This document shows, in pieces, positions 19,553 to 48,250 of a stretch of 64,000 bases of DNA (within the stretch, counting starts at the first letter, position 1; each line of letters opens with the position of its first letter). Both the position numbers and the translations under genes were made by a program. Source of the stretch: Gemmatimonadota bacterium (lineage in GTDB: Bacteria; JBHIER01; G020348925). The stretch is from positions 1,834,030 through 1,898,029 of the forward strand of contig CP070758.1 in assembly GCA_020348925.1 (NCBI GenBank), read 5' to 3'. The notes under the pieces are model-generated. The model saw nothing but the letters and a program-made list of their open reading frames with translations. It was not told the origin of the DNA and ran no database searches.

Positions 19553-19964
19553 GTCAACCAAGGATTCCAGCAGGCGCGGGGAGTCGTTGATTGAAGATGG
19601 TCTTGTTTCATTCTGAAAAATGAACGTTCTATAAGTGCGCAGCCGAACCATTTCCAACCTCGTATGATAGTCTTGTGATTGTTGGAAACTTTTGCAATAT
19701 CGTGGCAATAATCGTGCTCTGAGTTTTTGAGATCACTTTATTATTGCTCCTTGCACTTTTCATAAGGAGATATATATATTATCAAATCTTTGATCAAGAA
19801 GCTGTGGTGAAGTGTTCTCGCGTCAGGAGTGTAATCCTGTGCAATTTTCGGACAAGGTCAAAACGACTAAGAACTTATCAATAGCATATAGCTTTCAGCA
19901 TTTTACTCAGTTTCATGCCTTTGGGCCTCTATTGAATTCTGAGATTGAGAGGAGGAATCTATCC

Positions 19965-23295: not shown

Positions 23296-23309
23296 ACCTG
23301 AAGACGCTT

Positions 23310-31300: not shown

Positions 31301-31637
31301 CACGCCCATCGAGAAGGCTGTGGCCGGGATCTGGGCTGACGTGCTTGGACTGGAGCACATCGGCGTTTATGATGATTTCTTCGAGCTGGGAGGACACTCC
31401 CTGCTGGCCATCCAGGTCGTCTCTCGACTTGGAAAAGCCTTCCAGATTCATCTCCCTTTGCGCCGTCTCTTTGAGGCTCCAACTGTGGAAAAGCTGTCAG
31501 GCTTTATCATGACCCTTGAACGCAAGTCCGGTCAAACAGAGAGGATTGCTCGCATACTGAGCAAGGTCGAGGCCATGTCCGCCGAGGATGTGAGAAGGAT
31601 GCTCCGAGAAAAGAGAAGGAAAATAGAGAACCCATGA
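28374..31637 (+). CDS. NRPS module C-A-T; C domain of DCL/starter-like type
   Basis: YPLSPMQQGMLFHSL, SHHALLDGRA, YTSGSTGTPKG, NTYGPTE, GGHSLL. Confidence 0.95.
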   Translation: MENLEDSYPLSPMQQGMLFHSLCAPHSGVYVQQLVCAFREDLHVSAFKQAWGRIVERHAILRTSFLVEDLKAPLQRVHRNVPLPIKEQDWRGISGTDQENRLEAYLRQDRERGFVITEAPLLRLALFRLAEENYRFLWTSHHALLDGRARLIILKELFALYDAFCQDQDLSLEPTPLYRHYIDWLGKQDFAKAERFWRDRLRAFTAPTPLPRDRSTQVPTSDEEDYGKQEIRISGTLLSALQSLAQSHQLTLNTSVQGAWAILLSRYSGEQDVVFGATRACRRSALDGAESMVGLFINTLPVRIRVTPGEPLLSWLKTLRQQWITLRDYEHTPLLKVQEWSEIPPGEPLFESFLVFENYRLNSLLRSHGGSWANREFRLMERTNYPLAVGASVDQELFLKIIYDRRRFDETDIIRMLGHMKTILEGMVAHPHQPLSELPLMGEAERHQVLIEWNDREAAYPQDRCIHQLFEEWADRTPDEIAVVFEGQYISYGELNTQANRLARCLRQHGVGPETPVGICMNRSLDMIVGIMAILKAGGAYVPLDPTYPKERLTFMLTDSQALMVLTERTLKQVFPDLHIPVLYFDAATIQEVYTNPESAVSSENLAYVMYTSGSTGTPKGVMISHHNIVGFLYGYKQVTLDGPRRVGTSVAPFSFDTSVEEIFSNLCFGGTLHIIRPENSTNVEYFARYLVDHRITTSYILPDFLSGVAHHLKNLRDRMNLKCITTGLVPKKERVLQSMRDVSDLIRVLNTYGPTEVTYGATAFEFLSATDPDHDVPIGVPFPNYEVYLLDSNGQPIPVGLTGQLLIGGVGLARGYHNRPGLTAEMFIPDPFSDEPGTRLYRTGDVGRYLPDGNIEFLGRRDDQVKIRGFRIETGEVKSVLGQHPAVEKAIVVAREDQPGDKRLVAYVVPKRGMNPTISTIRGFLKEKIPHYMVPSIFMFLDSLPLTPSGKLDRRRLPAPDQSRPELGEAYVPPRTPIEKAVAGIWADVLGLEHIGVYDDFFELGGHSLLAIQVVSRLGKAFQIHLPLRRLFEAPTVEKLSGFIMTLERKSGQTERIARILSKVEAMSAEDVRRMLREKRRKIENP

Positions 31638-34600
31638 TGTTTGACAAAGACGCCTCTGAGGAAACTGAAAAGCTCGAGCTCCTTGCCTTTCTCCTAAAAG
31701 AGGAGGGCATTGAATCCCCTCAGGAGCACCCTCTTATCCGGCGAGGAGATCGGGATCGGTTGCCCCTTTCCTTTGCCCAGCAGCGGCTGTGGTTTCTCGA
31801 CCAATGGGTGCCCGGCAGTTCCTTTTACAATATTCCGGCCGCCGTTCATCTCACCGGCCCCCTCGATGTGACCGCGCTGGAGCAGAGCCTCAATGAGATT
31901 GTGCGACGCCACGAAGTTCTGCGGACGACCTTTTCCCTGGTGGAGGGAAAACCGGTTCAGGTCATCGCGAAATCTATGCCTTTGCAAGTATCGATGATAG
32001 ACTTGAGGGAAATCCCAGAGGAATCACGAGAGACAGAGATCGAGCACGCAATTACCGAAGAGATACAGCGGCCCTTTGACCTGTCTCAGGGTCCACTCTT
32101 ACGAGCACGTCTGCTTCGCCTGGCTGAGAAGGAGCACATTCTGTCCCTGACGATGCACCACATCGTTTCCGATGCCTGGTCCATGGGGATATTCTATCGG
32201 GAGCTTTCCACACTGTACCGAGCTTTTACCACCGGGATGCCGTCAACGCTGCCTGAGCTTCCCATCCAGTACGCTGACTTTGCGCTTTGGCAGCGGGAAT
32301 GGCTGCAGGGGGAGAATTTGGAGGCACAGCTCTCCTATTGGAGAGAGCGGCTTGCCGTCGCACCTCCATCGCTGGAGTTACCCACAGATCGCCCCCGCCC
32401 TCCCGCGCAGACGTATCGGGGGGCACGCCAATCTCTGGTGCTGTCCAAAACATTGACGGAGGCGATCAAGGTGCTGAGCCAGCGGGAAGGGGTCACTCTG
32501 TTCATGACGTTACTGGCGGCGTTCAAAATTCTGCTCCATCGCTACACCGGGCAGGACGACATCGTCTTAGGCGGCCCCATCGCGGGTCGGAGCCGGCCAG
32601 AAATCGAAGGACTGATTGGATTCTTTGTCAACACACTCGTAATGCACACAAACATTTCGGGAAATCCCAGTTTTCGGGAGGTACTTGGTCGGGTATGCGA
32701 GGTATGTTTGGGGGCTTACGATCACCAGGATCTCCCTTTCGAGAAACTGGTCGAGGAATTGCGCCCGGAGCGAAATCTCAATCAGTCGCCATTGTTCCAG
32801 GTGATGTTCGCGTATCAGAATACTCCGAGGCAGGGCCTCGAGCTTTCAGGACTGACCGTGAATCCGTTGGAAGTCGATAGCGGAACGGCTAAGTTTGATG
32901 TAGCGCTATCCGTCGTGGAAGAACGGGAAGGACTGAAGGGGACATTCGAGTTCAATACCGATCTGTTCAACAGGGATACTATCGCCCGGATGCTGGGGCA
33001 TTTTCAAACCCTGCTGGAGGGCATCGTGACCAATCCCGAGGAACACATCTCGACATTGCCCCTGTTGACGGAAGCCCAGCAGCGTCAGGTGCTGGTAGAG
33101 TGGAACGAGACTTCGGCGGATTTCCCCAACGACAAATGCATCAATGAGTTGTTCGAAACCCAGGTGGAGCAAATCCCTGAAGTCGTGGCAATCGTTTTTG
33201 AGAACCAAAGGTTAACCTATCAACAGTTAAACCGAGAGTCCAATCGACTGGCGCACTACTTGCAAAAGTTAGGTGTTGGTCCAGATGTATTCGTAGGCAT
33301 CTGTGTGGAGCGCTCGTTGGAGATGGTTGTAGGAATCCTGGGTATCCTCAAGGCCGGTGGAGCGTATGTGCCCTTAGATCCGGCGTATCCAAAAGAACGG
33401 GTGTCCTTTATGCTGAAGGATACCCAGGCGCCGATCCTGCTGACCCGGGAGAATCTGGTCGAGGAACTCCCCGATCATGAAGCACACGTCATCTGTCTGG
33501 ATAGGGACCGGGAAACGATCGGGCGAGAGAGCGAGGAGAATCCGGGCAGCAGGGCCACAGCCGACAGCCTGGCCTATGCTATTTATACCTCGGGCTCAAC
33601 GGGTATTCCCAAGGGGGTGCTTGTGGAGCACAGGGGATTATGCAACGTCGTTGAAGCATTTATTCAAATTCACACTTTGCATCAGGGCAACCGTCTTCTC
33701 CACACCGTTTCTTTCAATTTTGATGCTGCGACGTTGCACATGTTTATGGCTTTTTGTTCGGGCGCGACTCTGTGTTTGACCGCAGGTAATTTACTTTTAT
33801 CTGGTCCCAGTCTCATTCAGACATTGTGCGAACAGGCTATTACACTTCTACCGATCCCGGCATCCGTTTTATCTGCTCTTCCCTTCAAGAAGCTTCCCTC
33901 GTTGCGAACGATCTCTGTTGGGGCGGAAGTCTGTCCACCTGAGGTGGTAGCGCGGTGGGCTCCTGGCCGGCGATTTCTCAATGTTTACGGACCGACTGAA
34001 GCGACCATCGTTGCTACCACGGCTGTATGCACCGGTGGGGACCGCAGACCACCAATCGGTCGCCCCATCGCCAACACGCAGGTCTATATTCTGGACCGCC
34101 ATCTCCAAGCAGTGCCTATCGGAGTAGCCGGTGAACTGCACATCGGTGGTGTAGGTCTTGCCGGAGGTTATCTCAATCAGCCGGACGTAACCGGGGAGAA
34201 ATTCATTCCCAATCCCTTTCGTGATGAGGCGGGTGCACGCCTTTATAAGACCGGGGACCTGGGCCGCTACCTGCCGGATGGCAATATTGAGTTTCTCGGT
34301 CGTATGGACCACCAGGTGAAGATTCGCGGTTTCCGCATCGAACTTGGAGAGATCGAGGCGGTGCTGGGACAACACCCCGCTGTTCGAGGGGTCGTTGTTC
34401 TGGCCAGAGAGGATGCGCCTGGCGACAAACGCTTAGTGGCTTATATCGTTGCTGACCAAGAGCATCGTCCCACAATCAGGGAACTGCGTGACTTCTTGAA
34501 ACAGAAGTTTCCTGACTACATGGCGCCCTCGGTCTTTGTGACGCTGGATTCCTTACCACTGACACCCAATGACAAAGTAGATCGTCGGGCACTGCCCGTG

Positions 34601-34951
34601 CCCGATCAGAAGCGCCCCGAGTTGGAGAAAGCTTTTGTTGCTCCCAGGACACCCCTGGAAAAGACAGTGGCTGGGATCTGGTCCGACATACTGGGATTGG
34701 AGAAAATTGGCGTCCACGATAATTTCTTCGAGCTGGGTGGACACTCCCTGCTGGCCACCCAGCTCGTTTCTCGCGTGCGCGATGTCTGTCAGGTCGAGCT
34801 GCCGCTACGGAGCATCTTTGAGGCGACGACCATAGCCGATCAGGCCCTGGTGGTTGAGAAACTTCTTATTACGTATGTTCGTGGATTATCCGATGAGGAA
34901 GTTATCGAACGCCTGGGTCAGCACCCATATTCGATGAATGAGAAACGATGA
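31634..34951 (+). CDS. NRPS module C-A-T
   Basis: LSFAQQRLWFL, HHIVSDAWS, YTSGSTGIPKG, NVYGPTE, GGHSLL. Confidence 0.95.
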   Translation: MMFDKDASEETEKLELLAFLLKEEGIESPQEHPLIRRGDRDRLPLSFAQQRLWFLDQWVPGSSFYNIPAAVHLTGPLDVTALEQSLNEIVRRHEVLRTTFSLVEGKPVQVIAKSMPLQVSMIDLREIPEESRETEIEHAITEEIQRPFDLSQGPLLRARLLRLAEKEHILSLTMHHIVSDAWSMGIFYRELSTLYRAFTTGMPSTLPELPIQYADFALWQREWLQGENLEAQLSYWRERLAVAPPSLELPTDRPRPPAQTYRGARQSLVLSKTLTEAIKVLSQREGVTLFMTLLAAFKILLHRYTGQDDIVLGGPIAGRSRPEIEGLIGFFVNTLVMHTNISGNPSFREVLGRVCEVCLGAYDHQDLPFEKLVEELRPERNLNQSPLFQVMFAYQNTPRQGLELSGLTVNPLEVDSGTAKFDVALSVVEEREGLKGTFEFNTDLFNRDTIARMLGHFQTLLEGIVTNPEEHISTLPLLTEAQQRQVLVEWNETSADFPNDKCINELFETQVEQIPEVVAIVFENQRLTYQQLNRESNRLAHYLQKLGVGPDVFVGICVERSLEMVVGILGILKAGGAYVPLDPAYPKERVSFMLKDTQAPILLTRENLVEELPDHEAHVICLDRDRETIGRESEENPGSRATADSLAYAIYTSGSTGIPKGVLVEHRGLCNVVEAFIQIHTLHQGNRLLHTVSFNFDAATLHMFMAFCSGATLCLTAGNLLLSGPSLIQTLCEQAITLLPIPASVLSALPFKKLPSLRTISVGAEVCPPEVVARWAPGRRFLNVYGPTEATIVATTAVCTGGDRRPPIGRPIANTQVYILDRHLQAVPIGVAGELHIGGVGLAGGYLNQPDVTGEKFIPNPFRDEAGARLYKTGDLGRYLPDGNIEFLGRMDHQVKIRGFRIELGEIEAVLGQHPAVRGVVVLAREDAPGDKRLVAYIVADQEHRPTIRELRDFLKQKFPDYMAPSVFVTLDSLPLTPNDKVDRRALPVPDQKRPELEKAFVAPRTPLEKTVAGIWSDILGLEKIGVHDNFFELGGHSLLATQLVSRVRDVCQVELPLRSIFEATTIADQALVVEKLLITYVRGLSDEEVIERLGQHPYSMNEKR

Positions 34952-37900
34952 AGAACATAGATAATCATATTGAAGGACAGCGCCTCGAGCTGTCACCGGC
35001 AAAGCGAGTTTTTCTCGAAAGGCTCATGCGGGGTGAAGGGAGGAGAGAAGACCCATCGAGCCTCATACCCAAACGGACGGAGCAGAGCCCCGCCCCCCTC
35101 TCCTTTGCTCAGCAGCGGCTGTGGTTCCTGGATCAACTGGAGCCTCATAATCCCGCGTATACTGTCCCTATTGCCATGCGTCTGAAAGGCCGGCTGAATG
35201 TGGCAGCCCTGGAGCAAAGTCTCAATGAAATTGTGAGGCGCCACGAAGTCTTGCGGACGACCTTCTCCATGGTGGCTGGACAACCGGTTCAGGTTATCGC
35301 AGCAAGTCTAAATCTACATGTAACGGTGGTGGACGTCAGGGAGTTTCCTGAAGCTGCACGAGAAACAGAAGCTGGAAAGATAATCGCTGAAGAGGTGCAG
35401 CGACGGTTCGATCTATCCCAGGATCCACTCGTACGAGTTCATCTGCTGCGTCTGGAAGAGGAGGTGCACATCCTGCTGATCATAATGCACCACATCGTCT
35501 CTGATGAGTGGTCGATGAGGATATTCTTTCAGGAGCTTTCTATACTCTATAAGGCTTTGGTTAGAGGGGAGCCGTGGTCACTTCCGGAGCTTCCGATTCA
35601 ATATGCTGACTTTGCGGTTTGGCAGCGGAAGTGGTTGCGGGGGGATTTCTTGGACACACAGCGTTCCTATTGGAGGGAGCACGTTGCTGGTATGCCGCGG
35701 GTGTTGGAGCTCCCCACCGATCGTCCACGACCAGTAGTACAGACGTATCGTGGTGGACATCACTCACTGGTGCTGTCCAGAAATGCGACGCATTTGCTGA
35801 AGAGATTGAGCCAGCAAGAAGGGGCCACGCTGTTCATGACGTTGCTCTCTGTCTTCAAGACATTGCTCTTCCACTACACGGGTCAGGAAGATATCTTTGT
35901 GGGAACTCCTGTAGCCAATCGCAGCCGGACCGAGATCGAGGGATTGATCGGATTTTTCACCAACACATTGGTCTTGCGTACCGATCTTTCCGGCAATCCC
36001 ACCTTTCGAGAATTGATGAGACGTGCACGCGAAGTATGTTTGGGAGCCTACACGCATCAGGATGTGCCTTTTGAGAAACTGGTGGAGGAGTTGAAGCCCG
36101 AACGGAATCTCAATTATTCTCCTCTGTTTCAGGTGATGTTTGTTTTCCAGGATGAGACTGCTTTTGTTCCGGAACTCCCGGGCGTGCGTGTCAGTATGAT
36201 GCAGGTTGACAGCGGGACGTCGAAGTTCGATCTGACGTTGTTCATGCAGGAGGAGGAGGGTGGGCTTCGGGCCACGGTGGAGTATTCTTCGGATCTGTTT
36301 GATGCAGCGACAATCCGAAGGATGTTGAGACATCTGGAGGTGTTGGTGGAGGGGATTGTGACTGATCCTGATCGGCGTCTTACAGAGTTGCCGTTGTTGA
36401 CGGAGGTTGAGCGGCATCGGTTGCTGGTGGAATGGAACAAGACCCAATCGGATTACCCGGCAGATGTATGCGTTCATCAGCTCTTTGAGGTACAGGCAGA
36501 GCAGAGGCCTGATGGGATTGCCGTGGTCTTTGAAGATCAGCACCTCACCTACCGGGAACTCAATGCACGGGCCAACCAACTGGCTCACTACCTCAAAGAG
36601 CGCGGCGTGGGACCCGACGTTCCAGTAGGCATTTTCGCGGGGCGTTCGTTGGACATAGTCATAGGTTTATTAGGTATCCTCAAGGCCGGTGGGGTGTATG
36701 TTCCCCTGGACCCATGCTATCCCAAAGATCGTCTGGCCTTTCAGTTACAGGATACTTGTGTACCGCATCTGTTGACTCAAAAGCGGCTGATGCCAGAGCT
36801 TCCCGAACATAATGTGAATGTAATCTGTTTGGACTCGCACTGGGACATCATTGCTCAAGAGGGTATAGATAATACTGTCAGCGGGGCCCAGCCCGAGAAT
36901 TTGATTTACATACTCTATACCTCAGGATCGACAGGACGACCCAAGGGTGTTGCCATCCCCCATGGTTCCATAGTCAACCTGATAACGTGGCAACTCCATC
37001 AGACTGACCTGCCCCAAGGTGCCAAGACGCTGCAGTACAATTCATTCAGCTTTGACGCCTGTTTCATGGATATCTTTATGAGTTGGTGCTCAGGCGACAC
37101 ATTGTTCATCGTGCCGGAACCCGTACGGCAGGACATCACTGGATTGGCGCGATTCATTGCAGATCATGGCATCGAACGACTCAATCTCCCCTTTATCGTA
37201 CTTGAGCATTTGGCTACCATGTGGGATGCTGGGGAGAAGCCGCCACAGTGCATGAGGGAGATCATCAGCACGGCTGAACAATTGCACGTAAGTCAGCCTC
37301 TCAGGAGACTATTCGCTCAATTACCCCATTGTCTCCTGTTCAATCACTACGGTCCCTCCGAGACTCACGTCGTCACCGCCTTCGCACTGACGGGACCACC
37401 GGGTAACTGGCCAGAATTTCCTGCCATAGGACGGCCCATAGCCAACACACGTACCTATATCTTGGATATAAGTTTTTGCCCTGTCCCGGTGGGGCTGCCC
37501 GGTGACCTGTACATTGGGGGTGTCAGCTTGGCTCGCGGCTATCTGGATCGGCCGGAATTGACGGCGGAGCGTTTTGTTCCGAATCCCTTCGGTGACGAGT
37601 CGGAGGCACGGATATATAAGACCGGAGACGTGGCCCGTTACTCACCGGATGGAAATATCGAGTACCTGGGCCGCATGGATCACCAGGTGAAACTCCGCGG
37701 TTTCCGCATCGAGTTGGGGGAGATCGAGGCCGTTTTGAACCAGCACTCTGGGGTGAAGGAGGCCGTGGTACTGGCCAGGGAGGGATGGGCTCAGGAGAAG
37801 CGCTTGGTCGCCTATGTTGTCCCGAATCAGACGGGAGCGCTTCTCAGCAGCGAACTGCGCGGTTTCCTGAAACAGAAGCTTCCGGAGTACATGGTGCCCT

Positions 37901-39522
37901 CGGTTTTTGTGACGCTGGAAGCCCTGCCGTTGACGTCGAGCGGCAAGGTGGACCGCGGGGCGCTTCCTGTACCTGGTCAGAGACGACCTGAGCTGGAAGT
38001 GACCTTTGCCCCTCCCAGGACGTCTGTTGAAGAAATGCTGAGGGGGATCTGGACCGAGGTCCTCGGTCTTGAGCAGGTCGGTATCCGCGACAACTTCTTT
38101 GAGCTGGGAGGACATTCTCTGCTGGCTGTGAAACTGGTGTCGAGGATGTCGCTGGCGCTGAATCGCGAAATATCGGTCAGGTTTCTCTTTCAACACCCCA
38201 CCATTGCCGACTGCAGCGAAGCGATAGAGAATCTTCACCAGGCTGGTGAATCCCCGCAGGCTCAGGAGTATAGTGGTGTCTCCTCCCTCCCTCACGGTGG
38301 ACCCTCTGAACTCTCCCTGTCACCCTTCCTGCAGATCGAGCACCGCCCACTCTTACCATTGTTTACAGAGGGGAAGATTCCTCCTGTTGATGCGGCGGCT
38401 CTGGGATATTTTCCCGACAGTCTTCTGAGGCGCACTGATGTGACCCGCGATGAAATAATTGATAGGTGGTGTGACGGCCACCCGTCCTTGAAAGTTCACA
38501 TCGAGACCTCTTTAGGCCGAATTGCCCTCATACTGCTGCCTCGATTTCATTCCGAGCTGTACAAAGATGAGGACGACCTCGTGCGGGTCATTCTCGAAGC
38601 GCTGGAACTGGCTGTTCGGACTGGGGCAAGCACTGTCTCTCTTTCAGGACTGATCCCTTCGGCCACGGACTACGGTCGCTCCATCGAGGCAGCACGCTCC
38701 AAGCGGGTGGATGTGCCGATGATTACCACCGGACACGCTACAACCGCCGCCACAGTCGTGTTGGCTGTAAAAAAGATTTTACATGAAGGCGGGCGGGACC
38801 TGGCCCGGGAGCGGGTTGGGTTCCTGGGTTTGGGATCCATCGGGCAGGCGACCCTTCGTCTGATGCTGAACTGTCTGCCCCATCCACTGGAGATCACACT
38901 GTGTGATGTCTACAGCAAGCTCGATTTCCTGGAAAGAATCCGGCGGGAGCTCATCGATGATTTGGGATTTCAAGGTCCCGTCCGGCTCAGTCAATCACGG
39001 CTGGACGTACCACCGGAGTTTGATGAGGCCAGCCTGATCGTCGGGGCCACCAATGTACCCGACATTCTGGATATCCGGCGCGTCAATCCCGGAACAATGA
39101 TGGTTGATGATTCCGGACCTCATTGTTTCGTTGTCAGGAATGCTATCAGACGTCTTCAGGAGCAGGAAGATATTCTCTTTACCGAAGGCGGAGTGCTCCG
39201 ATCGCCGCATCCCATCCGTCAGCTCAGATACGTACCGCGTTCGGAGGAAAAAATGATGGATCCTGCCCAGAGGGAAGCCCTTATGAATTTCAATCCCTTT
39301 CACATAACGGGTTGTGTTCTCTCCGGCCTCCTTTCCTCACGCTTTGAGGACCTCCCGCCGACGGTGGGACTCGTCGACGATCAATCATGCAATGCGCACT
39401 ACGATCGGCTCAGTCGATTAGGATTTCAAGGCGCCGACCTAACTTGTGAGAGCTACGTGCTTCCCGAAAAATCGATTCACAGCTTCCGGAACCGTTTCGG
39501 GGGAGTGGACCAGGATGAGTGA
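34948..39522 (+). CDS. NRPS module C-A-T plus a C-terminal NAD(P)-binding domain resembling acyl-ACP reductase
   Basis: HHIVSDEWS, NHYGPSETHVVT (Pro-family A5), GGHSLL; then ITTGHATT, GFLGLGSIG, VDDSGPH, TEGG, TGCVLSGLL. Confidence 0.92.
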   Translation: MKNIDNHIEGQRLELSPAKRVFLERLMRGEGRREDPSSLIPKRTEQSPAPLSFAQQRLWFLDQLEPHNPAYTVPIAMRLKGRLNVAALEQSLNEIVRRHEVLRTTFSMVAGQPVQVIAASLNLHVTVVDVREFPEAARETEAGKIIAEEVQRRFDLSQDPLVRVHLLRLEEEVHILLIIMHHIVSDEWSMRIFFQELSILYKALVRGEPWSLPELPIQYADFAVWQRKWLRGDFLDTQRSYWREHVAGMPRVLELPTDRPRPVVQTYRGGHHSLVLSRNATHLLKRLSQQEGATLFMTLLSVFKTLLFHYTGQEDIFVGTPVANRSRTEIEGLIGFFTNTLVLRTDLSGNPTFRELMRRAREVCLGAYTHQDVPFEKLVEELKPERNLNYSPLFQVMFVFQDETAFVPELPGVRVSMMQVDSGTSKFDLTLFMQEEEGGLRATVEYSSDLFDAATIRRMLRHLEVLVEGIVTDPDRRLTELPLLTEVERHRLLVEWNKTQSDYPADVCVHQLFEVQAEQRPDGIAVVFEDQHLTYRELNARANQLAHYLKERGVGPDVPVGIFAGRSLDIVIGLLGILKAGGVYVPLDPCYPKDRLAFQLQDTCVPHLLTQKRLMPELPEHNVNVICLDSHWDIIAQEGIDNTVSGAQPENLIYILYTSGSTGRPKGVAIPHGSIVNLITWQLHQTDLPQGAKTLQYNSFSFDACFMDIFMSWCSGDTLFIVPEPVRQDITGLARFIADHGIERLNLPFIVLEHLATMWDAGEKPPQCMREIISTAEQLHVSQPLRRLFAQLPHCLLFNHYGPSETHVVTAFALTGPPGNWPEFPAIGRPIANTRTYILDISFCPVPVGLPGDLYIGGVSLARGYLDRPELTAERFVPNPFGDESEARIYKTGDVARYSPDGNIEYLGRMDHQVKLRGFRIELGEIEAVLNQHSGVKEAVVLAREGWAQEKRLVAYVVPNQTGALLSSELRGFLKQKLPEYMVPSVFVTLEALPLTSSGKVDRGALPVPGQRRPELEVTFAPPRTSVEEMLRGIWTEVLGLEQVGIRDNFFELGGHSLLAVKLVSRMSLALNREISVRFLFQHPTIADCSEAIENLHQAGESPQAQEYSGVSSLPHGGPSELSLSPFLQIEHRPLLPLFTEGKIPPVDAAALGYFPDSLLRRTDVTRDEIIDRWCDGHPSLKVHIETSLGRIALILLPRFHSELYKDEDDLVRVILEALELAVRTGASTVSLSGLIPSATDYGRSIEAARSKRVDVPMITTGHATTAATVVLAVKKILHEGGRDLARERVGFLGLGSIGQATLRLMLNCLPHPLEITLCDVYSKLDFLERIRRELIDDLGFQGPVRLSQSRLDVPPEFDEASLIVGATNVPDILDIRRVNPGTMMVDDSGPHCFVVRNAIRRLQEQEDILFTEGGVLRSPHPIRQLRYVPRSEEKMMDPAQREALMNFNPFHITGCVLSGLLSSRFEDLPPTVGLVDDQSCNAHYDRLSRLGFQGADLTCESYVLPEKSIHSFRNRFGGVDQDE

Positions 39523-42500
39523 ACGATCACCCCTCTACCCCACGTCCTGTGCTCAGCAGCAACTGTGGTTTCAGGCCCAGTTGGATCCGGAGAGTCACGT
39601 TTCTAATATTGCCTCCGCGGTGCGCTTGCATGGTTCCCTCCGTGTACCGGCGTTGGAGCGGAGTCTCGATGAGATTGCTCGACGCCACAAAGCCTTGCGG
39701 ACGACTTTCCTGACCAGAGCGGGACAACTCAAACAGGTTGTGGCACAATCCTCAATACCGCGGTTACCGGTACACGACCTGACGGTGTTCCCTGAGAGTG
39801 AGCGGGAGGATGAAGCCAGACGACTGCTCACAGAGAAAGCGCGTCGCCCTTTTGATCTGGCCACAGGTCCACTTTTTTTGGCAGGCATACTCCGGCTGGG
39901 GGTGGATGATCATATCCTTTTTACAGTAATGCACCGAATCATCGCGGATAATTGGTCCTTGGGTATATTTTTTCAGGAATTCTTTATTCTTTACGAGGCT
40001 TACTCCACCGGAAAATCCTCGCCCCTTCCGGAGCTCACTACGCAGTATCACAAGTTTGCTCAGTGGCAATGTAAGTGGATGAAGAGCAAATCAGCCGAGG
40101 AACAGCTCTCATATTGGAAACAGCGACTCGCTCATGTTCCGTTCACGGTGAATCTCCCTACCGACGGCTCACGTCACGGCTCGCGACGAATCCACCAGGG
40201 TGCAACGCAGTCACTGATGCTGCCTGAATCACTGTCTCACTCCCTCAGAGCCCTGAGCCATCAGGAGGAGGTTACCTTACCCACTATTTTACTGGCCGCC
40301 TGGCACGTGCTGCTGTATCGCTACACGAATCAGGGTGAGATTGTCGTCGGATTTACCACTGAAGGCCGCAGGCGCTCGGGGATGGAGGAACCGATTGGAT
40401 TATGTAGCAATATCCTGGCCCTGCGAATGCCGCCAGTGCGAGACAATCCTGCTTTCAGGGAGCTGCTGAAGCGGATGCGCGGAGTGATCCTGGAAGCGTA
40501 TGCCAACCAGGATGTACCCTTTGAGAATGTGATGGAGGAACTGCAATCGCAAGGGGACTTGGACCGCACGCCTCAGTTTCAGGTCGCCTTCCAATTCGAT
40601 CATCGCCCTGATGTGGCTTCAAAGCCGCACGGCTTGGACGTGAAAGACTTCGAGTTTGAAAAAGGAATTTCAAGGCATGATGTAACCCTGAAGATTGTAG
40701 AGAAGGTGGAAGAACTCTCCTGCTCTTTCGAGTACAACACCGACCTGTTTGAGGCGACGACCATCGCCCGGATGGGATGGCATTTCAAGAGATTGTTGGA
40801 AGGCATTGTAGATCAGCCGGATGAGGTCATCTCGGATTTGCCGCTGTTGACGGAAGGCGAATGGCATCAACTCCTTGTGGAGTGGAATACGGTTCGAGTC
40901 GAGAACTTTAAGGAGGAATTTTATCATCGGAGTTTTGAGTTTCAAGCCGAACGATTGTCAGACGCGGTGGCGGTCGTGTTTGAGGGTGAGCACTTGACAT
41001 ATCAGGAGTTGAATGTGCGAGCAAACCAATTGGCGCACTATTTACAAGCTCTGGGTGTAGGACCTGACGTACTTGTAGGGATGTGTATGGAGCGTTCTCC
41101 GGAGTTGGTCGTTGGAGTGCTCGCAACTCTCAAGGCAGGCGGGGCTTGCGTGCCTCTGGATCCGACATTTCCAGAGGACTGGTTTGCTTTTGTCTTGGAA
41201 GACACGGATGTTCAGGTCGTATTAACGCAAGACCGTTTGCTCAAGAAGCTTGCCGGGCACACAGGTCATGTGATCTGTTTGGATTCGGCCCAGGAGAACT
41301 GGGATCGAGAAAGCACAGAAAATCCGGTTCGTGATATAACGAGCGAAAATTTATCATTTGTGTACTACACCTCCGGCTCAACAGGTATTCCCAAAGCCGT
41401 GATGCAGCCGTACCGCAAAGTTGACACAACCGAGTCACTTGTTTCATTTACAGAAGAGGATCGACATCTGTTCAAAGCATCCATCGGCTTTACTCCCTTC
41501 GGTGCTGAGATTCTCACGCCTTTGATGACGGGTGGAAAAATGATTATTGCTGAGCCGGGACGGAGTCAGGACAGCACCTATCTCGTTCCATTGATTACCA
41601 AGCATACGGTGACGTATATCAGTGTTGTGCCTGCGATGCTACGAATGCTTCTGGAGCAGGATGAAATTGAAACATGTCGTAGCCTGAAACATGTCCTTTC
41701 CTTCGGTGAACCATTGCCCCATGACCTCCGAGAGCGCTTTTTCACTCGGACGGCTGCGAACCTGTACGTCTTATACGGCACCACCGAAGCACCCAGCGCG
41801 ACCTTCAAGATGTGCCAGCGCGGGGATGATGCATCGAGTAGTGGCGGTTTCTCCATAGGTCGGCGCCTGTCCGGAAACCGGATCCATATTATGTCTCTCA
41901 TGGGCGGGATGCAACCGGTTCCCATTGGCGTGCCGGGAGAGCTCTGTTGCAGCGGTTTTAACCTGGCTCGAGGGTATCTCAACCGTCCAGACTTGACTGC
42001 GGAGAGGTTCGTTCCAGATCCCGTCGGTGATGAGCCGGGAGCGCGCCTATATAAAACCGGAGACTTGGCTCGCTACCTGCCTGATGGGAACATCGAGTTC
42101 CTCGGCCGTATCGATCACCAGGTGAAACTCCGCGGCCTCCGTATCGAGCTTGCAGAGATCGAGGCAATACTGAGGCAGCACGTGACTGTCTTCGAGGTCG
42201 CCGTCGTGATGAGGGAAGACGAACCCGGGAATAACCGACTTGCAGCCTACGTGGTTCCCAATCAAGGGTCTACAATTTCCATCAGCGAACTCCGAAGTTT
42301 CCTAAGGGTGAAGCTTCCCGAGTACATGGTGCCTTCCGCTTTTGTTGAGCTGGATGCACTGTCCCTGACACGCAACGGGAAAATTGATCGTCAGGCTCTG
42401 CCAGCACCCGACAGGGTCAGACCCGAACAGGGAAGAGCTTTCATTGCACCTCGGGATGCGCTGGAAAATCACCTGGTAAAGATATGGGAAAAGCTTCTGG

Positions 42501-43516
42501 GCATCAAACCCATCGGTGTCAGGGACAGCTTCTTCGATCTGGGCGGACATTCACTTCTCGCAGTGCGCTTGTTCGCACAGATCGAAAAGATGCTTGATAA
42601 AAAACTTTCCCTGGCAAATCTCCTCGAGGCACCGACGGTTGAGCAGCTCGCTGGCCTTCTTCGCCAGGAAGGCGAGCCAGCACACTGGTCTTCATTAGTG
42701 GCCATTCAATCCGAAGGCACCAAACTGCCCTTCTTCTGGGTACCTCCGGCCGCGGCTGATGTCATCAGCTTGGCAGATCTCGCCAGGCATCTGGGACCGG
42801 ATCGACCCTTCTATGGACTCCAACCTCTGGGATTGGAGGGGAATCAATCTCCCCATGCCCACGTTGAGGAGATGGCCGCCCATTATATAAAAGAAATACG
42901 CAACATTCAGTCTGAAGGTCCTTATCTTTTGGGAGGAATCTGTTTCGGAGGCATTGTGGCGTTCGAGATGGCTTGCCGGCTTCATGAGCAAAATGACTCT
43001 GTGGCTTTCCTTGCTCTCTTGGATTCCAGTCAGCCACCCCCCCTGATATCGCTGCGGGATTATGTTCCCCGTTTACTCCTCCACCATTTACCGAGGGGAC
43101 AATTGACCTACTGTCTCAAGAAAGACCTGAGAGAGAAGGGAACAAAGTGGAAATGGAAGCTGTCCCGGAGTCATGGAGGCCGCCGTTTCTACAGGGTGTG
43201 GAATGTTCATGAAACGGCACGGAGAGCATACGTACCCCGTCCTTATCCGGGTCGGATCACCCTCTTTGAGAGCCGCGAATTTCGCATTCGTTTTCCCGAT
43301 TACGAGGCCCGGTGGTCCGCGCTGACCGAGGAGGGTTTGGATTGTCACACCATAGCGTGCGATCATGGCGATTTCCTGCATGAACCCTATGTCCGGATCG
43401 TCGCCGAGAAATTGAAAAACTGCCTCGAGGGTGTACCCTCTCAGAACGATGCTGGGAGAAATAAAAAGACTGCGTTGTCAAGAGCCCCCATTATAAACAG
43501 GGAGTTGTTAGGTTGA
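39515..43516 (+). CDS. NRPS module C*-A*-T-TE with a degenerate C motif, non-canonical A domain and Cys-type TE
   Basis: MHRIIADNWS (no second His), YTSGSTGIPKA, GFTPFGAE, LYGTTE, GGHSLL; TE GGICFGG. Start at ATG 39515 after GGGAG. Confidence 0.92.
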   Translation: MSERSPLYPTSCAQQQLWFQAQLDPESHVSNIASAVRLHGSLRVPALERSLDEIARRHKALRTTFLTRAGQLKQVVAQSSIPRLPVHDLTVFPESEREDEARRLLTEKARRPFDLATGPLFLAGILRLGVDDHILFTVMHRIIADNWSLGIFFQEFFILYEAYSTGKSSPLPELTTQYHKFAQWQCKWMKSKSAEEQLSYWKQRLAHVPFTVNLPTDGSRHGSRRIHQGATQSLMLPESLSHSLRALSHQEEVTLPTILLAAWHVLLYRYTNQGEIVVGFTTEGRRRSGMEEPIGLCSNILALRMPPVRDNPAFRELLKRMRGVILEAYANQDVPFENVMEELQSQGDLDRTPQFQVAFQFDHRPDVASKPHGLDVKDFEFEKGISRHDVTLKIVEKVEELSCSFEYNTDLFEATTIARMGWHFKRLLEGIVDQPDEVISDLPLLTEGEWHQLLVEWNTVRVENFKEEFYHRSFEFQAERLSDAVAVVFEGEHLTYQELNVRANQLAHYLQALGVGPDVLVGMCMERSPELVVGVLATLKAGGACVPLDPTFPEDWFAFVLEDTDVQVVLTQDRLLKKLAGHTGHVICLDSAQENWDRESTENPVRDITSENLSFVYYTSGSTGIPKAVMQPYRKVDTTESLVSFTEEDRHLFKASIGFTPFGAEILTPLMTGGKMIIAEPGRSQDSTYLVPLITKHTVTYISVVPAMLRMLLEQDEIETCRSLKHVLSFGEPLPHDLRERFFTRTAANLYVLYGTTEAPSATFKMCQRGDDASSSGGFSIGRRLSGNRIHIMSLMGGMQPVPIGVPGELCCSGFNLARGYLNRPDLTAERFVPDPVGDEPGARLYKTGDLARYLPDGNIEFLGRIDHQVKLRGLRIELAEIEAILRQHVTVFEVAVVMREDEPGNNRLAAYVVPNQGSTISISELRSFLRVKLPEYMVPSAFVELDALSLTRNGKIDRQALPAPDRVRPEQGRAFIAPRDALENHLVKIWEKLLGIKPIGVRDSFFDLGGHSLLAVRLFAQIEKMLDKKLSLANLLEAPTVEQLAGLLRQEGEPAHWSSLVAIQSEGTKLPFFWVPPAAADVISLADLARHLGPDRPFYGLQPLGLEGNQSPHAHVEEMAAHYIKEIRNIQSEGPYLLGGICFGGIVAFEMACRLHEQNDSVAFLALLDSSQPPPLISLRDYVPRLLLHHLPRGQLTYCLKKDLREKGTKWKWKLSRSHGGRRFYRVWNVHETARRAYVPRPYPGRITLFESREFRIRFPDYEARWSALTEEGLDCHTIACDHGDFLHEPYVRIVAEKLKNCLEGVPSQNDAGRNKKTALSRAPIINRELLG

Positions 43517-45030
43517 AGAGAGATTCCGTTCGGCCCGAGAGTCGAGGTTCAGCGTTCACGCAACAGAACTATTCCCCTGGGGGTGCGATGATTGGGGGAA
43601 CGCTGGTACTCACGGGATCCCGGATGGTCTTTTTTGTGTGTGGTTACATTGTCCACGTTTTCCTGGCGAGATATTTACAGCCACAGTTGTTTGGCGTCTG
43701 GGGAGTCATTCTCGGAATCCTGACCGTCTATCAGATGATCGTAATGTCAGGACCTTCGAAGGCCATTTCAAAATTTACAGCGGAAAGAGCAGATCAAGCT
43801 CGATCGATTCAAAATCAGGGGTTGAAGATCCAGATCATTTTATCCGGCATACTGTGCGTATTCATGGGCATCGCAGCACACTGGATTGCGCGGCTACTCA
43901 AAGATTTGACACTGACTCCATATATTCGCGCCACAGTCTTTTTCTTTCCTGTCTATGCCTTGTATGCGGTCTATCTGGGTACGCTCAATGGGCTGCGTGC
44001 CTTTGATCGACAAGCACTGGTCATGACAGCTTACTCCTTGCTGCGAATGATAGGAATCGTGGCTCTCGTTCTGTTGGGCTACCGGGTGTACGGGGTACTG
44101 GGTGGCAGTTGGCTGGCCATGTTCGTAGCAATCTTCATCGCTCGTCGTTTCTGCACGTGTCCGGTAGCAGATCATACCTTTGAAGGGCAGCGAATTATTC
44201 GGTTCGCTCTTCCCGTGAGCTTCTTCGCCCTGGCCTTGGCCGCTTTTTCAAATCTCGACATTTTCCTTCTCAAAGCTCTCCTGGGAAGTAATGAGGATGT
44301 GGGGTTCTACACGGCCGCCGTCGTTCTTGTCAAAGTACCGTATCTGTTGCTCTTCGGGCTCAATACGACGCTGTTTCCGGTGGTGGCGCAATCCTTGTGG
44401 GACCCTACGTACTCCAAAGCGAAATTCTATATCAGCCGCTCACTGCGCTATGCTCTCCTCATCGTAACACCCACTGCGTTTGTAACAGCGGCCACTTCGA
44501 GAGAATTGATCCTCCTTATATACACATCACAATACATCTCCGCCTCGGAACCGCTCCGGATCCTCATTTTCGGGTATGTTTTTGCTTCGATCTTTATGAT
44601 CGCGTCAACAGTAATTATGGCCGTGGGGAAACCGAGGATCGCCATGGGTATCGTGTTCCTGATGGTTGGTTTGGACTTTGTACTCAATTATGCATTGATC
44701 CCCCAGTTCGGATTGACCGGTGCCGCGCTGGCGACATCTGCGGCCGCATTCATCGGCGTTTTCGGAGGACTGGCGTATATCTTTCGAAGATTCGGTCAAC
44801 TCTTGAATCCCATATCACTTGTAAAAATCACCGGTGTCTCAATTGGACTCTGTGTGCCTTGTGTTTTTTTCGATATGAGGGGCATGTGGTTATTGATATA
44901 TTACGCGGTTGCGATCGTTCTCTATATTGGTTTCCTGGCTCTTCTCAAGGAGCTCGGAGAAGAGGAATGGTCGATTTTCAAACGCGCCTTTGTTCCACAG
45001 ACAGTCCGGAAGCGCCACAACGGATCATGA
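43513..45030 (+). CDS. Polysaccharide flippase (Wzx-like, MOP/MATE superfamily)
   Basis: About 12-14 TM segments; LARYLQPQLFGVW, NLDIFLLKALLG, VGFYTAA, LIPQFGLTGAALATS. Start may be 43588. Confidence 0.88.
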   Translation: MKRDSVRPESRGSAFTQQNYSPGGAMIGGTLVLTGSRMVFFVCGYIVHVFLARYLQPQLFGVWGVILGILTVYQMIVMSGPSKAISKFTAERADQARSIQNQGLKIQIILSGILCVFMGIAAHWIARLLKDLTLTPYIRATVFFFPVYALYAVYLGTLNGLRAFDRQALVMTAYSLLRMIGIVALVLLGYRVYGVLGGSWLAMFVAIFIARRFCTCPVADHTFEGQRIIRFALPVSFFALALAAFSNLDIFLLKALLGSNEDVGFYTAAVVLVKVPYLLLFGLNTTLFPVVAQSLWDPTYSKAKFYISRSLRYALLIVTPTAFVTAATSRELILLIYTSQYISASEPLRILIFGYVFASIFMIASTVIMAVGKPRIAMGIVFLMVGLDFVLNYALIPQFGLTGAALATSAAAFIGVFGGLAYIFRRFGQLLNPISLVKITGVSIGLCVPCVFFDMRGMWLLIYYAVAIVLYIGFLALLKELGEEEWSIFKRAFVPQTVRKRHNGS

Positions 45031-45036
45031 TGACCT

Positions 45037-46227
45037 ATGCAAAAAACGACGAATGAGAATAACCGAGCATTGGACACATCTGAAATTGACTCTCTCATCA
45101 TAGTCACCAGCTCTTATGTCTATGTGCCTGAGGATGTTCTTATCAACTCAGGTGTGTTTGTCCGGGACTTTGCGCGGGCGCTTACGGAGCGTGGTGTACG
45201 AGTGACCGTTGTGACGCAGCACAGGAGCGCAGCCGTGCTGGTGGATCCAGGCATTGAGGTGATCGCATATCCATGGTCCGGAATGGATCGACAGCCGGTG
45301 GAATTGAGTTTCCACAGGTTGTCGGATTACGGTCACATCTGGTCACTGCTGCATGGCGGGATCAATGCGCTGCGCGGAATCTCGGTTTCGGATCAGAAGG
45401 TGCGCTGTCTGTGCATGTGGGCTGTGCCAGCCGGGTATATGGCCATGAAGGCCCTCCGTGGAACGGGCGTTCCGTACGACGTGTGGTGCCTGGGATCGGA
45501 CATTTGGCATTACGGAGGCAAGCGGTTTTCGCGGTGGCTCATAAAAAAAATCTTGCGAAACGCCCAGCATCTTTTTGCGGATGGCTATGTTTTACGAGAT
45601 GATGTGCAGAGCCTTTCTCGGCGAAACTGCACATTTTTAGCCAGCTCTCGAATGTTATCGGGAGAGACGGAGATTGTACCCCGTCTCGTACCAGGCAAAC
45701 CCAATCTGCTTTTCATCGGTCGATGGCATCCGAACAAAGGTGTCGATCTCCTTCCGGAGACGATGCGCTTCTTGAAAAATATGGGAGTGGACGCCCATCT
45801 TCATCTCTTCGGTGGCGGAACGCTTCAAGAAGAGTTGAAGACATTGATCTCAAAACATGGAGTGGAGAACGATATCACCCTCCATGGGTATGCGGATTCC
45901 GGCGTGGCTGTCGCCTATCTCAAAGCCTGTGATGTCTTAATTATTCCCTCACGTATCGAGAGTATCCCTATTATATTTTCTGACGCGGTCAAATGCAGAA
46001 TTCCGGTGGTCGCGACTGACGTCGGTGATTTGGGAATGTTGATTCGGGAGCATCAAATCGGTGAAGTCGTTCGGCCGAATTCGCCATTGATGCTGGCCGA
46101 GGGTGTTCAACTCGTGTTGAAGAAAGATCGATCCTTTTTTTCTCAGCAAGCCCTGAGAGTAGCGCGGCGTTTCGATGTGAGGGCTGCTGCGATGACATAT
46201 CTTCAAATTATAAAAACAGGAGCATAA
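45037..46227 (+). CDS. Glycosyltransferase, GT4/GT-B family
   Basis: LLFIGRWHPNKGVDLL, DVLIIPSRIESIPIIFSDA (E-x7-D), PVVATDVG. Confidence 0.9.
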   Translation: MQKTTNENNRALDTSEIDSLIIVTSSYVYVPEDVLINSGVFVRDFARALTERGVRVTVVTQHRSAAVLVDPGIEVIAYPWSGMDRQPVELSFHRLSDYGHIWSLLHGGINALRGISVSDQKVRCLCMWAVPAGYMAMKALRGTGVPYDVWCLGSDIWHYGGKRFSRWLIKKILRNAQHLFADGYVLRDDVQSLSRRNCTFLASSRMLSGETEIVPRLVPGKPNLLFIGRWHPNKGVDLLPETMRFLKNMGVDAHLHLFGGGTLQEELKTLISKHGVENDITLHGYADSGVAVAYLKACDVLIIPSRIESIPIIFSDAVKCRIPVVATDVGDLGMLIREHQIGEVVRPNSPLMLAEGVQLVLKKDRSFFSQQALRVARRFDVRAAAMTYLQIIKTGA

Positions 46228-46328
46228 CCATCCGAAAAACTGTCTCCCGGATGGTTACACTGATCAACGCGGAGAGAGACGGAACGTCAAAAGAGTGGAA
46301 AAATAGCCAGAACAAGGAAGTACTGTGT

Positions 46329-47477: not shown

Positions 47478-48250
47478 TGAGTAACACAGAAGGCACCACG
47501 ACACCATCGCTAGTTACGTCGAACTCCGCTCCTGAGAGGCTCACAATAAATTCCAGCCAAGTGCATGTATGGTGTGCCGATCTGAATATACATTCAGATC
47601 GATTGCACAAGTATTATCACACACTTTCTGCCGACGAACGGGATCGAAGCGCGCGGTTCAAATTTCAAAAAGATCGTGACGGTTATATTGCCGCGCACGG
47701 TATACTTCGAGCCGTTTTAAGTCGATACGTGAATACAAAACCGTGTCAACTTCGTTTTTATGCGAACAATTTTGGCAAACCGTCACTGGACACATCGACC
47801 GGACCAGGGATGCCCCGTTTCAATATGGCGCACTCGAGTGGATTGGCCCTCTTCTGCATCTCCCGGGATCGTGAAGTAGGCATTGACCTCGAAACTATTC
47901 GTCCCCTTGATGAGATAAAGGAGATTGCCGCACAATCGTTCTCCCCGAAGGAGGTCGAGACGCTTCTGGCGCTCCCCGATAAGGAACAGGTTGAAGCCTT
48001 TTATACATGCTGGACCCGAAAGGAGGCGTATGTCAAGGCCAGAGGGATGGGATTGTCTCTGCCTCTCGATCGGTTTGACGTCTCTCTTTCGCCGGACGAA
48101 CCGGCCAGACTGTTGGCGTCCAGAGAAGATCCGCAGGAAACATTTCGATGGACCCTGATGGGATTCAACCCTCGTCCAAACTTTGTGGCAGCCCTTGCTG
48201 TAGCGGGCCATGGCTGGCAAGTGAAATTCTGGCACTGGTCTGATGAGTAG
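47474..48250 (+). CDS. Sfp-type 4'-phosphopantetheinyl transferase
   Basis: FGKP, FNMAHS, VGIDLE, WTRKEAYVKARG. Confidence 0.93.
   Translation: MMSNTEGTTTPSLVTSNSAPERLTINSSQVHVWCADLNIHSDRLHKYYHTLSADERDRSARFKFQKDRDGYIAAHGILRAVLSRYVNTKPCQLRFYANNFGKPSLDTSTGPGMPRFNMAHSSGLALFCISRDREVGIDLETIRPLDEIKEIAAQSFSPKEVETLLALPDKEQVEAFYTCWTRKEAYVKARGMGLSLPLDRFDVSLSPDEPARLLASREDPQETFRWTLMGFNPRPNFVAALAVAGHGWQVKFWHWSDE

Follow-up and report, generated by a model that had tools for sequence, protein, structure and literature searches.

The 64,000-nucleotide stretch of DNA analysed here (the window; positions 1,834,030 to 1,898,029 of contig CP070758.1, from a Gemmatimonadota bacterium) encodes orfD, a protein of the non-ribosomal peptide synthetase (NRPS) type, whose last part, residues 1125-1518, belongs to the terminal amidation domain (TAD) family. 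The TAD of orfD is not last in gene order. The open reading frame (ORF) behind it, orfE, overlaps orfD by 8 nt and carries a condensation (C) domain and an adenylation (A) domain, each of which has lost a conserved residue; such domains, standing directly after a TAD, are denoted C* and A* below. We favour, tentatively and a little short of calling it probable, a combined account in which the TAD of orfD gives the peptide a chain end other than an acid and works with the dedicated A*-PCP of orfE (PCP, peptidyl carrier protein).

orfD is the ORF at 34948-39522 on the forward strand, 1524 aa long. According to the ORF list, its translation and Pfam it is an NRPS module of the order C-A-PCP-TAD, with matches to Condensation (47-493), AMP-binding (513-866), AMP-binding_C (925-1000) and PP-binding (1031-1092). 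A preliminary description, made from the letters of the DNA, had placed a region of about 400 aa behind the carrier domain, starting at 38300, and had likened it to acyl-ACP reductase (AAR) rather than to a thioesterase (TE) or to a reductase (R) domain of the short-chain dehydrogenase/reductase (SDR) type. Such a region is present as a 432-aa tail after the PCP, and homology to the TAD of CarI places the domain at 38320-39501, so the start given was about right. The final 432 aa have no significant Pfam match, the top one being 2-Hacid_dh_C with E-values of 0.064-0.18, under its cut-off. Up to an E-value of 10, Pfam matched neither a thioesterase in the tail nor NAD_binding_4 (PF07993, the SDR-type R domain with TGxxGxxG and YxxxK) anywhere in orfD, which bears out the reported lack of SDR-type motifs. 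The seven motifs quoted in the preliminary description were all found in orfD, in the order in which they had been named:

GASTVSLSGLIPS, orfD aa 1226
ITTGHATTAATV, orfD aa 1259
VGFLGLGSIG, orfD aa 1290
MMVDDSGPH, orfD aa 1384
FTEGGVL, orfD aa 1411
ITGCVLSGLL, orfD aa 1453
LSRLGFQ, orfD aa 1488

When the tail was compared by phmmer with all chains of the PDB, two sequences were matched, whose entries bear the name 'Amino acid adenylation domain protein', with E-values of 8.6e-141 (9e4s and 9e4u) and 1.6e-140 (9e4x, 9e50 and 9e56) and a gapless alignment of 394 residues between positions 33-426 of the tail and 21-414 of the chain. The Foldseek title of these five entries, released on 2025-02-26, is 'TAD from Carmabin Biosynthetic Pathway'. 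A model of the tail predicted by AlphaFold2 from a 19-row alignment (predicted local distance difference test, pLDDT, 87.3; predicted TM-score, pTM, 0.88) has the macrodomain-like N-lobe and the Rossmann C-lobe of TAD, and in a Foldseek search of the PDB with this model ranks 1-10 were taken by ten chains of the CarI TAD (query and target TM-scores, TMq 0.85-0.89 and TMt 0.91-0.97; 54-56% identity). The next matches were the AAR structures 6jzq, 6jzy, 6jzu and 6jzz (E-values of 6e-16 to 7e-15, TMq 0.55-0.58, TMt 0.68-0.72, 18% identity), and after a gap came 2-hydroxyacid and amino-acid dehydrogenases with E-values of about 1e-7 and TM-scores below 0.5; no SDR-type R domain was among the matches listed. 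With AAR standing directly after the TAD crystal structures, the reading of the tail as AAR-like, and as neither an SDR-type R domain nor a TE, holds up, and the structural comparison that might have turned up a best match of another fold gave TAD and then AAR. What falls is the idea of a distinct, undescribed domain, since the TAD family is already published with crystal structures, and the AAR likeness and the Cys are reported there. By tblastn, the tail is 57% identical to the Moorena producens 3L locus. The domain stands directly behind the PCP at 1031-1092 and ends 6 aa before the stop of orfD.

Over five motif groups the numbering of CarI and that of orfD differ by a constant offset of 782, with no insertion or deletion between them, and all the active-site residues seen in the CarI structures recur in orfD. 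At E <= 1e-3, HMMER with the TAD domain found 924 representative proteins, far above what chance would give, and at the stricter E <= 1e-30 there were still 499. Conservation was counted in 248 full-length TAD domains, i.e. that of the window and 247 from 258 database proteins, and domains spanning less than positions 40-395 of the hidden Markov model (HMM) were left out of this set. The features of the PCP and the TAD in orfD are as follows:

38038-38223, forward strand: PCP of orfD, aa 1031-1092 (Pfam PP-binding, E 1.7e-14; GGHSL located)
38116-38118, forward strand: codon of the phosphopantetheine Ser1057 of this PCP
38320-39501, forward strand: TAD-family domain, aa 1125-1518, an AAR-like two-lobed, presumably NAD(H)-binding domain (phmmer against PDB, model, Foldseek)
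38725-38733, forward strand: TTG, Thr1260-Thr1261-Gly1262, CarI Thr2042-Thr-Gly2044 (T1261 kept in 245/248, G1262 in 247/248)
38827-38844, forward strand: GLGSIG, aa 1294-1299, the GxGxxG dinucleotide-binding loop, CarI 2076-2081 (Gly kept in 246, 246 and 247 of 248)
38905-38907, forward strand: Asp1320, CarI Asp2102, the residue that according to Rankin et al. makes the domain take NAD(H) rather than NADP(H)/CoA (kept in 246/248)
39106-39120, forward strand: DDSGP loop, Asp1387-Pro1391, CarI 2169-2173, beside the nicotinamide (D1387 kept in 243, D1388 in 240, S1389 in 239, P1391 in 244 of 248)
39313-39315, forward strand: Cys1456 (TGT), presumed acyl-enzyme nucleophile, CarI Cys2238, AAR Cys294 (kept in 248/248)

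The codon that the preliminary description had given for a catalytic Cys, at about 39313, is at exactly that place, and the Cys is kept in every one of the homologues compared. Asp1320 matches the CarI residue that excludes NADP(H), and the conserved residues suggest that the TAD of orfD binds NAD(H). As in orfD, the protein ends within 30 aa of the TAD in 242 of the 248 full domains. An extension of more than 100 aa behind the TAD was seen in two, in both cases a TE, and a C domain was fused behind none of the 248.

Rankin, Khare, Gerwick, Sherman, Gerwick and Smith (bioRxiv 10.1101/2024.10.28.620694) described TAD as a putative terminal amidation domain of ~400 aa which ends CarI, VatR and HcaD, and reported 757 unique TAD-homologous sequences across bacterial phyla, mostly C-terminal in NRPS proteins. 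According to this preprint, the CarI TAD binds NAD(H), not NADP(H) or CoA, with the nicotinamide beside the invariant Cys2238; the phosphopantetheine thiol of the PCP can be cross-linked to Cys2238, dephospho-CoA forms a disulfide with it, and the nearest structure is cyanobacterial AAR, whose Cys294 is spatially equivalent. The known products of TAD pathways, carmabin, vatiamide E/F and hectoramide B, are primary amides (10.1101/2024.10.28.620694; PMC10949194). In their discussion the authors allow that a redox-neutral route to the amide might begin with reduction of the thioester, by way of a transient aldehyde; they also argue that the conserved Asp near N1 of the nicotinamide favours NAD+ over NADH (10.1101/2024.10.28.620694).

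The TAD of orfD is like those of CarI, VatR and HcaD in its fold, in its place behind a PCP at the end of the polypeptide and in having identical TTG, GxGxxG, Asp, DDSGP and Cys; unlike them, it belongs to a host that is not cyanobacterial and is followed by a coupled C*-A*-PCP-TE ORF. AAR (6jzq, 6jzu, 6jzy; TIGR04058) shares the two-lobed fold, the nucleotide tunnel and, by way of CarI, the Cys that starts an equivalent helix, and its acyl-Cys ping-pong mechanism is the template for the first step proposed for TAD. However, AAR is free-standing and uses NADPH, whereas TAD binds NAD(H) and comes as a fusion with a PCP; AAR also has Gly at the place of the nicotinamide Asp of TAD, forms no dimer and hands its aldehyde to ADO, its identity to the tail in the structural alignment is as low as 18%, and the family score of the NCBIfam model TIGR04058 was not reached (12.2 bits against a cut-off of 449.7, E 0.084, tail residues 120-218). 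The top NCBIfam match of the tail was the N-terminal reductase region of PigE (E 1.8e-8, tail 104-327), with 33 bits against a cut-off of 850. PigE, from the prodigiosin MAP pathway, likewise has an AAR-like domain with a conserved Cys (Cys296) in a natural-product pathway, and reduction of a thioester to an aldehyde before transamination has experimental support for this N-terminal domain (PMC8341465); unlike the TAD of orfD, it is fused to a class III aminotransferase, and its aldehyde is then transaminated. The SDR-type R domain (NAD_binding_4) also follows the last PCP and works with a nicotinamide cofactor, but it belongs to another fold family, has no sequence match to TAD and lacks a catalytic Cys.

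The module behind the TAD starts at the ATG at 39515, within the last 8 nt of orfD (ATGAGTGA) and with GGAG upstream. The overlaps along orfB-orfC-orfD-orfE are 4, 4 and 8 nt. The upstream modules of orfD and the parts of orfE are:

28374-31637, forward strand: orfB, C-A-PCP
31634-34951, forward strand: orfC, C-A-PCP
39515-43516, forward strand: orfE, C*-A*-PCP-TE, 1333 aa (junction sequence, translation, Pfam on a longer GTG form)
39536-40876, forward strand: C* of orfE, in which MHRIIADN (His140-Arg141...Asp145, 39932-39949) replaces HHxxxDG
40934-41980, forward strand: A* of orfE, with Thr660 (41492-41494) at the position of the A4 'FD' Asp
42473-42655, forward strand: PCP of orfE, Ser1013 codon at 42551-42553 (own HMM and Pfam)
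42728-43408, forward strand: TE of orfE, GGICFGG with Cys1143 (42941-42943) at the place of the usual TE Ser

The C* of orfE keeps an intact Pfam Condensation match (E 5e-95), but the second His of HHxxxDG, which marks a canonical C domain, is lost (HR). The A* has its remaining core motifs intact and lacks the A4 Asp by which a domain for alpha-amino acids is recognised; this Asp (Asp235 in GrsA numbering) binds the substrate at its alpha-amino group. The PCP Ser and the TE of orfE are likewise intact. The pocket residues of A* matched no familiar code and named no substrate, and the subclades of A* differ in them. The TE of orfE is 63-64% identical to those of the other two terminal modules of the window. 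An argument from docking tails was dropped, because the short N-terminal extension of orfE is equally short in the C-A-PCP-TE protein after the loader at 13561-15585 and does not discriminate. A complex prediction of the TAD (tail residues 30-432) with the C* of orfE scored 0.01 against a mark of 0.32 and weighs neither way.

TAD loci were taken from the best 80 of 127 confirmed matches in species-representative genomes, together with 48 metagenome contigs, and read with HMMs for TE, C, A, PCP and R made from the domains of the window; these are uncurated, so that divergent domains may be missed. The locus search used a 6-row alignment; a scan with a single protein matched no relative, and the 19-row alignment was too divergent. 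An A domain was counted as post-TAD if it comes first among the A domains of an ORF that begins under 400 nt downstream of the TAD ORF; domains with incomplete HMM coverage were dropped. In a FastTree tree of 178 A domains from TAD loci, 17 of 18 post-TAD A domains form an exclusive clade with nothing else in it (SH-like support 99), which was recovered with an SH-aLRT of 100 on a 61-row subset in IQ-TREE. Its members are orfE, six Nitrospirota loci, two Verrucomicrobiota loci, L029 (Actinomycetota), L034 and L041 (Acidobacteriota), L036 and four metagenome loci. In the A4 'FD' column this clade has 10 Thr, 6 Ala and 1 Gly, i.e. Asp in 0/17, in contrast to Asp in 154 of the 161 other A domains. 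As a control of the columns, the A domain of CarI reads DASTVAAVC, a Tyr code. The locus L091, whose A match is split and which therefore stands outside the tree, has GFT at A4 and scores higher with the HMM of the clade, so that an A* partner follows the TAD in 18 of 100 informative loci (17 in the tree and L091), from several phyla. A search with the A* region, covering 119 proteins, was dominated by multi-module NRPSs; no A*-type domain stood out and no fusion to a TAD was found.

The constant part of the partner is A*-PCP, preceded by a His-less C, a truncated C or nothing and followed by a TE, a C or nothing. A C-like domain is absent from the post-TAD ORF of 11 partner-type loci out of 18, and in two more (L034 and L093) it is truncated, its C-terminal part alone being kept. 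In 11 of 17 loci there is no further NRPS ORF beyond the partner. An alignment of 46 C domains was made from all those of the window, all post-TAD ones, all others from the same loci and 28 random ones. HH is present in the active-site motif of 39 of the 41 C domains not following a TAD, whereas the post-TAD motifs read HRIIADN in the window, HRIISDD in L029 and L038, HSIISDD in L041 and, among metagenome loci, HSIISDD in L095 (identical to the C of L041) and HATVSDD in L098. Altogether, the second His or the whole N-lobe is missing in 8 of the 9 post-TAD ORFs that start with a C-like domain. The IQ-TREE tree of the 46 rows puts four of the five post-TAD C domains into one clade (SH-aLRT 98), separate from the remaining C domains in their loci, and FastTree gave the same grouping for three of four among 114 rows. 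In glycopeptide synthetases the X domain, which does not condense, reads HRxxxDD at this place, and the catalytic role of the second His is debated (PMC11546977). The likeness to HRIIADN of the window and HRIISDD of L029 and L038 is one of motif: unlike the X domain, C* nests in the tree among ordinary LCL-like C domains and sits at the N-terminus of its module.

To see what follows a TAD in general, the long TAD domains of the genome loci were counted together with that of the window, 79 in all. There is no NRPS domain in the next 7 kb in 54, and in four the downstream sequence is too short. Six stand directly before an ORF starting C-like (the window included) and four before an ORF starting with A, and six Nitrospirota loci have PCP-TE-TAD and then A-PCP. 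Two have a TE fused behind the TAD, one has an SDR-type R domain fused behind it, one is followed by a separate TE and one by a second TAD gene. Among the database proteins, Pfam gives PCP-TAD-TE in P0148 and P0177 and TAD-R in P0183. In all, TADs fused with other release domains were seen in six Nitrospirota loci (L053, L054, L060, L061, L064 and L069), in L032, L075 and L081, and in P0148, P0177 and P0183; self-sufficient release by TAD everywhere is hard to square with fusions to a TE or an R domain. Tandem TAD genes were observed in L041:1-2856 and L095:1-2492, where a PCP-TAD protein is followed by a free-standing TAD and then by C*-A*-PCP, and L029 has two TAD-ending proteins in one cluster. 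No TAD was matched in the second genome of the window's phylum in the species set (87% complete; the phylum is represented by two genomes), and in a sample of 401 Acidobacteriota genomes it was found only in the genome at the centre of the sample. Of the genes of the window, only the MbtH-like one was matched in other partner-type loci (L071 and L074), between the TAD and the A*.

On these grounds we suppose the following course of events for orfD and orfE. By analogy with CarI, the phosphopantetheine arm of the orfD PCP would reach Cys1456 through the NAD(H) tunnel with its peptidyl thioester, and this Cys, as in CarI and AAR, would take the chain over as a thioester. The chain would then leave with an end other than a carboxylate, most probably a primary amide as in carmabin, vatiamide and hectoramide, and NAD(H) may act without net redox change, the thioester being reduced to an aldehyde, nitrogen added and the adduct re-oxidised. 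The comparative data lead us to propose further that the TAD works with the translationally coupled orfE, whose A* would load an acid other than an alpha-amino acid onto the orfE PCP, and this carrier-bound co-substrate might serve as a nitrogen shuttle or as an acceptor for the Cys-bound chain. We link orfD with orfE because of the 8-nt overlap with GGAG, the exclusive A* clade, the loss of the A4 Asp, the loss of the C* His and the position in the only NRPS cluster found in the genome.

A wider form of this proposal is possible, and we hold it with slightly more reserve: in part of the family, TAD may be one half of a two-protein offloading unit with an A*-PCP-borne co-substrate, the C of orfE being kept as a scaffold. 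In one version, a tethered 2-oxo acid would be reductively aminated, give its nitrogen to the Cys-bound peptide and be regenerated by re-oxidation; such a tethered ammonia shuttle would explain the presence of NAD(H) without net redox. In the other, the Cys-bound chain would be discharged onto the carrier-bound acid, giving a bond of a kind made by no C domain. A related logic is cited in the introduction of the preprint for MtaG (myxothiazol; glycine-dependent oxidative amidation), in which a terminal amide arises through an extra carrier-bound block that is later discarded, and was considered for orfE. MtaG, however, has a normal C, a Gly-specific A and a monooxygenase, whereas in orfD/orfE the C* has lost its His, the A* lacks the Asp and an NAD(H) domain is present.

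Several observations weigh against a working partnership of TAD and orfE, and the first of them also speak for the simplest alternative, that the TAD alone ends the orfB-orfD line as a primary amide and orfE is an unrelated A-PCP-TE protein with a vestigial C. An A* partner is lacking in 82 of the 100 informative loci, including all 24 from cyanobacteria, the group that holds all three known products, and the pathways of the known amides have no partner. When five cyanobacterial TAD genomes were searched with the A* of orfE, no Asp-less relative was found, the best matches keeping the Asp (mostly FSFD), except in L143, where Glu (LAFE) stands at the A4 place and the domain is not A*-like. Since cyanobacterial TADs lack a partner, one is not required for amide formation in general. 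In addition, another A-PCP-TE protein, at 24846-27467, stands by itself in the window. We nevertheless regard action of the TAD alone as unlikely for orfD, because chance adjacency does not predict that 17 of 18 post-TAD A domains fall into one exclusive clade across Nitrospirota, Verrucomicrobiota, Acidobacteriota, Actinomycetota, the phylum of the window and metagenomes, nor the shared loss of the catalytic His in post-TAD C domains, nor the 8-nt overlap.

The remaining reservations about the partnership concern the chemistry and the sampling. Neither the TAD of CarI nor that of VatR released anything, whether with NAD(H), with metals, with ammonia or with one of the 20 amino acids (10.1101/2024.10.28.620694), and because turnover of a TAD is nowhere reported in that preprint, 'amidation' is itself a hypothesis. 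Every locus was found through its TAD, and the census of A* covers TAD loci. Related loci are not independent: the C* domains of L041 and L095 are identical, and the loci L029 and L038 are close. The pocket residues of A* vary between its subclades, with no single conserved substrate. The post-TAD C of L039 is canonical (HHIISDG); this single canonical case, as well as one of the TADs counted as followed by a C-like ORF, rests on L039, from the genome G005, which is flagged as unpublished and whose data may be published only if the depositors consent. The six Nitrospirota A*-PCP proteins could be read as the loader of a next line, although in no more than four of the six loci (L054, L061, L064 and L069) do NRPS ORFs follow them.

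The coupling of orfD to orfE could also mean that the TAD performs an in-line tailoring step on the orfD PCP, followed by ordinary condensation, with orfB to orfE forming one four-module line that ends at the TE of orfE. The translational coupling from orfB to orfE fits this, as do the count of three loader-like proteins and three C-A-PCP-TE modules in the genome, which would make three lines, the close identity of the orfE TE to the other terminal TEs, and L029, in which NRPS ORFs go on after the pair of a TAD protein and a C*-A*-PCP protein. We consider it improbable all the same. The C of orfE has Arg for the second His of HHxxxDG, a C-like domain is lacking or truncated in most partner-type loci as given above, what is fused behind the two long-extended TADs among the 248 is a TE and not a C, and an A* without the Asp that binds the alpha-amino group is unlikely to supply an ordinary amine acceptor.

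Cysteine-dependent reductive release of the AAR type with a free peptide aldehyde as end product, as the preliminary description had it, is improbable and not supported for orfD, for although AAR is the nearest fold outside the TAD family with an equivalent Cys294, the tail weakly matches PigE and AAR models of NCBIfam (and the PigE aldehyde has experimental support), the TAD authors allow a transient aldehyde and a DegT-type aminotransferase (46251-47477) lies in the cluster, the three known TAD products are amides and not aldehydes, alcohols or amines, the Asp at nicotinamide N1 is argued to favour NAD+ (10.1101/2024.10.28.620694), the AAR family model is missed by far, P0183 and L081 have a canonical SDR-type R domain behind the TAD that would be redundant were TAD the reductive release domain, and the DegT gene, which lies beside GT4 and a flippase-like gene, is without a counterpart in other partner-type loci.

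The cluster that contains orfD and orfE spans bases 2346-48250 and is the sole NRPS cluster found in the 5.04-Mb genome with the HMMs described above. Its other parts are:

2346, 4269 and 7697: A-PCP, C-A-PCP and C-A-PCP-TE
12121-12879: ferredoxin-like ORF (4Fe-4S), between two NRPS lines
12881-13564: ORF of 227 aa with no Pfam or NCBIfam match, 4-nt overlap onto the next loader
13561 and 15431: A-PCP and C-A-PCP-TE
19812-22187: TonB-dependent receptor
22267-24853: ABC importer
24846-27467, forward strand: A-PCP-TE protein, loader-like, with an A domain without the A4 Asp (Pfam, pocket columns)
27620-28207, forward strand: MbtH-like ORF
43513-48250: flippase/MATE-like gene, GT4, DegT aminotransferase (DegT-type, 46251-47477) and phosphopantetheinyl transferase (PPTase)

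The short NRPS lines of three, two and one modules near the TonB-dependent receptor and the ABC importer (2346-27467) have a siderophore-like layout. The loader-like A domains (2346-4235, 13561-15585 and 24846-27467) lack the A4 Asp, with the pockets HGGTRCSHQ, GDRRYAGT- and AWATSGGSP; with such Asp-less loaders the three lines would begin with something besides an alpha-amino acid, and one of the loaders has its own TE. The four TEs of the cluster, at 10964-11650, 18809-19495 and 26733-27416 (all three approximate) and at 42728-43408, read GGACMGG, GGACMGG, GGMCFGG and GGICFGG, i.e. GGxCxGG in place of the GxSxG usual in TE domains, and all would use a Cys nucleophile. The C domain of orfB, which begins with YPLSPMQQGMLFH, has no more than 26-31% identity with the six other C domains in the window and groups with the first-standing C domains of L003 and L034; it may be of the starter type or of the DCL type. 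The MbtH-like ORF has 195 aa, with an extension of ~140 aa past the MbtH domain and a weak CBF_beta match. About 30 kb before the window, at genome positions 1801838-1804782, lies a pair of genes of which one is A and the other R-like. Horizontal transfer of the cluster was considered and set aside, because its G+C content (0.526 against 0.495 for the genome) is equalled or exceeded in 2.6% of 46-kb windows, which is too weak.

The TAD domain itself is already described, and orfD adds to the family a new member whose host is unusual; the context of an orfE-type partner may be new. The main text of the preprint states that no ORF co-occurs consistently within ten genes, and post-TAD modules and fusions of TAD with a TE or R domain are unmentioned in it, while its figures and supplement (S9 neighbourhoods) or a journal version may show them (10.1101/2024.10.28.620694). 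A full-text search for 'terminal amidation domain' returned this preprint only, and one for the terminal amides of carmabin, vatiamide and hectoramide added the hectoramide paper and reviews.

The genome of the window is complete and its phylum sparsely sampled; in the window, a TAD is tightly coupled to an unusual partner module. If the two do work together, the orfE-type partner would be the 'missing component' suggested by the failed reconstitutions of TAD, and such clusters ought not to be annotated simply as makers of C-terminal amides. If the coupling is real, the PCP-TAD of orfD and orfE would form a defined two-protein system in which the missing substrate or nitrogen source may be sought. 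The TE-to-TAD swaps that have been proposed for engineering depend on knowing what a TAD requires.

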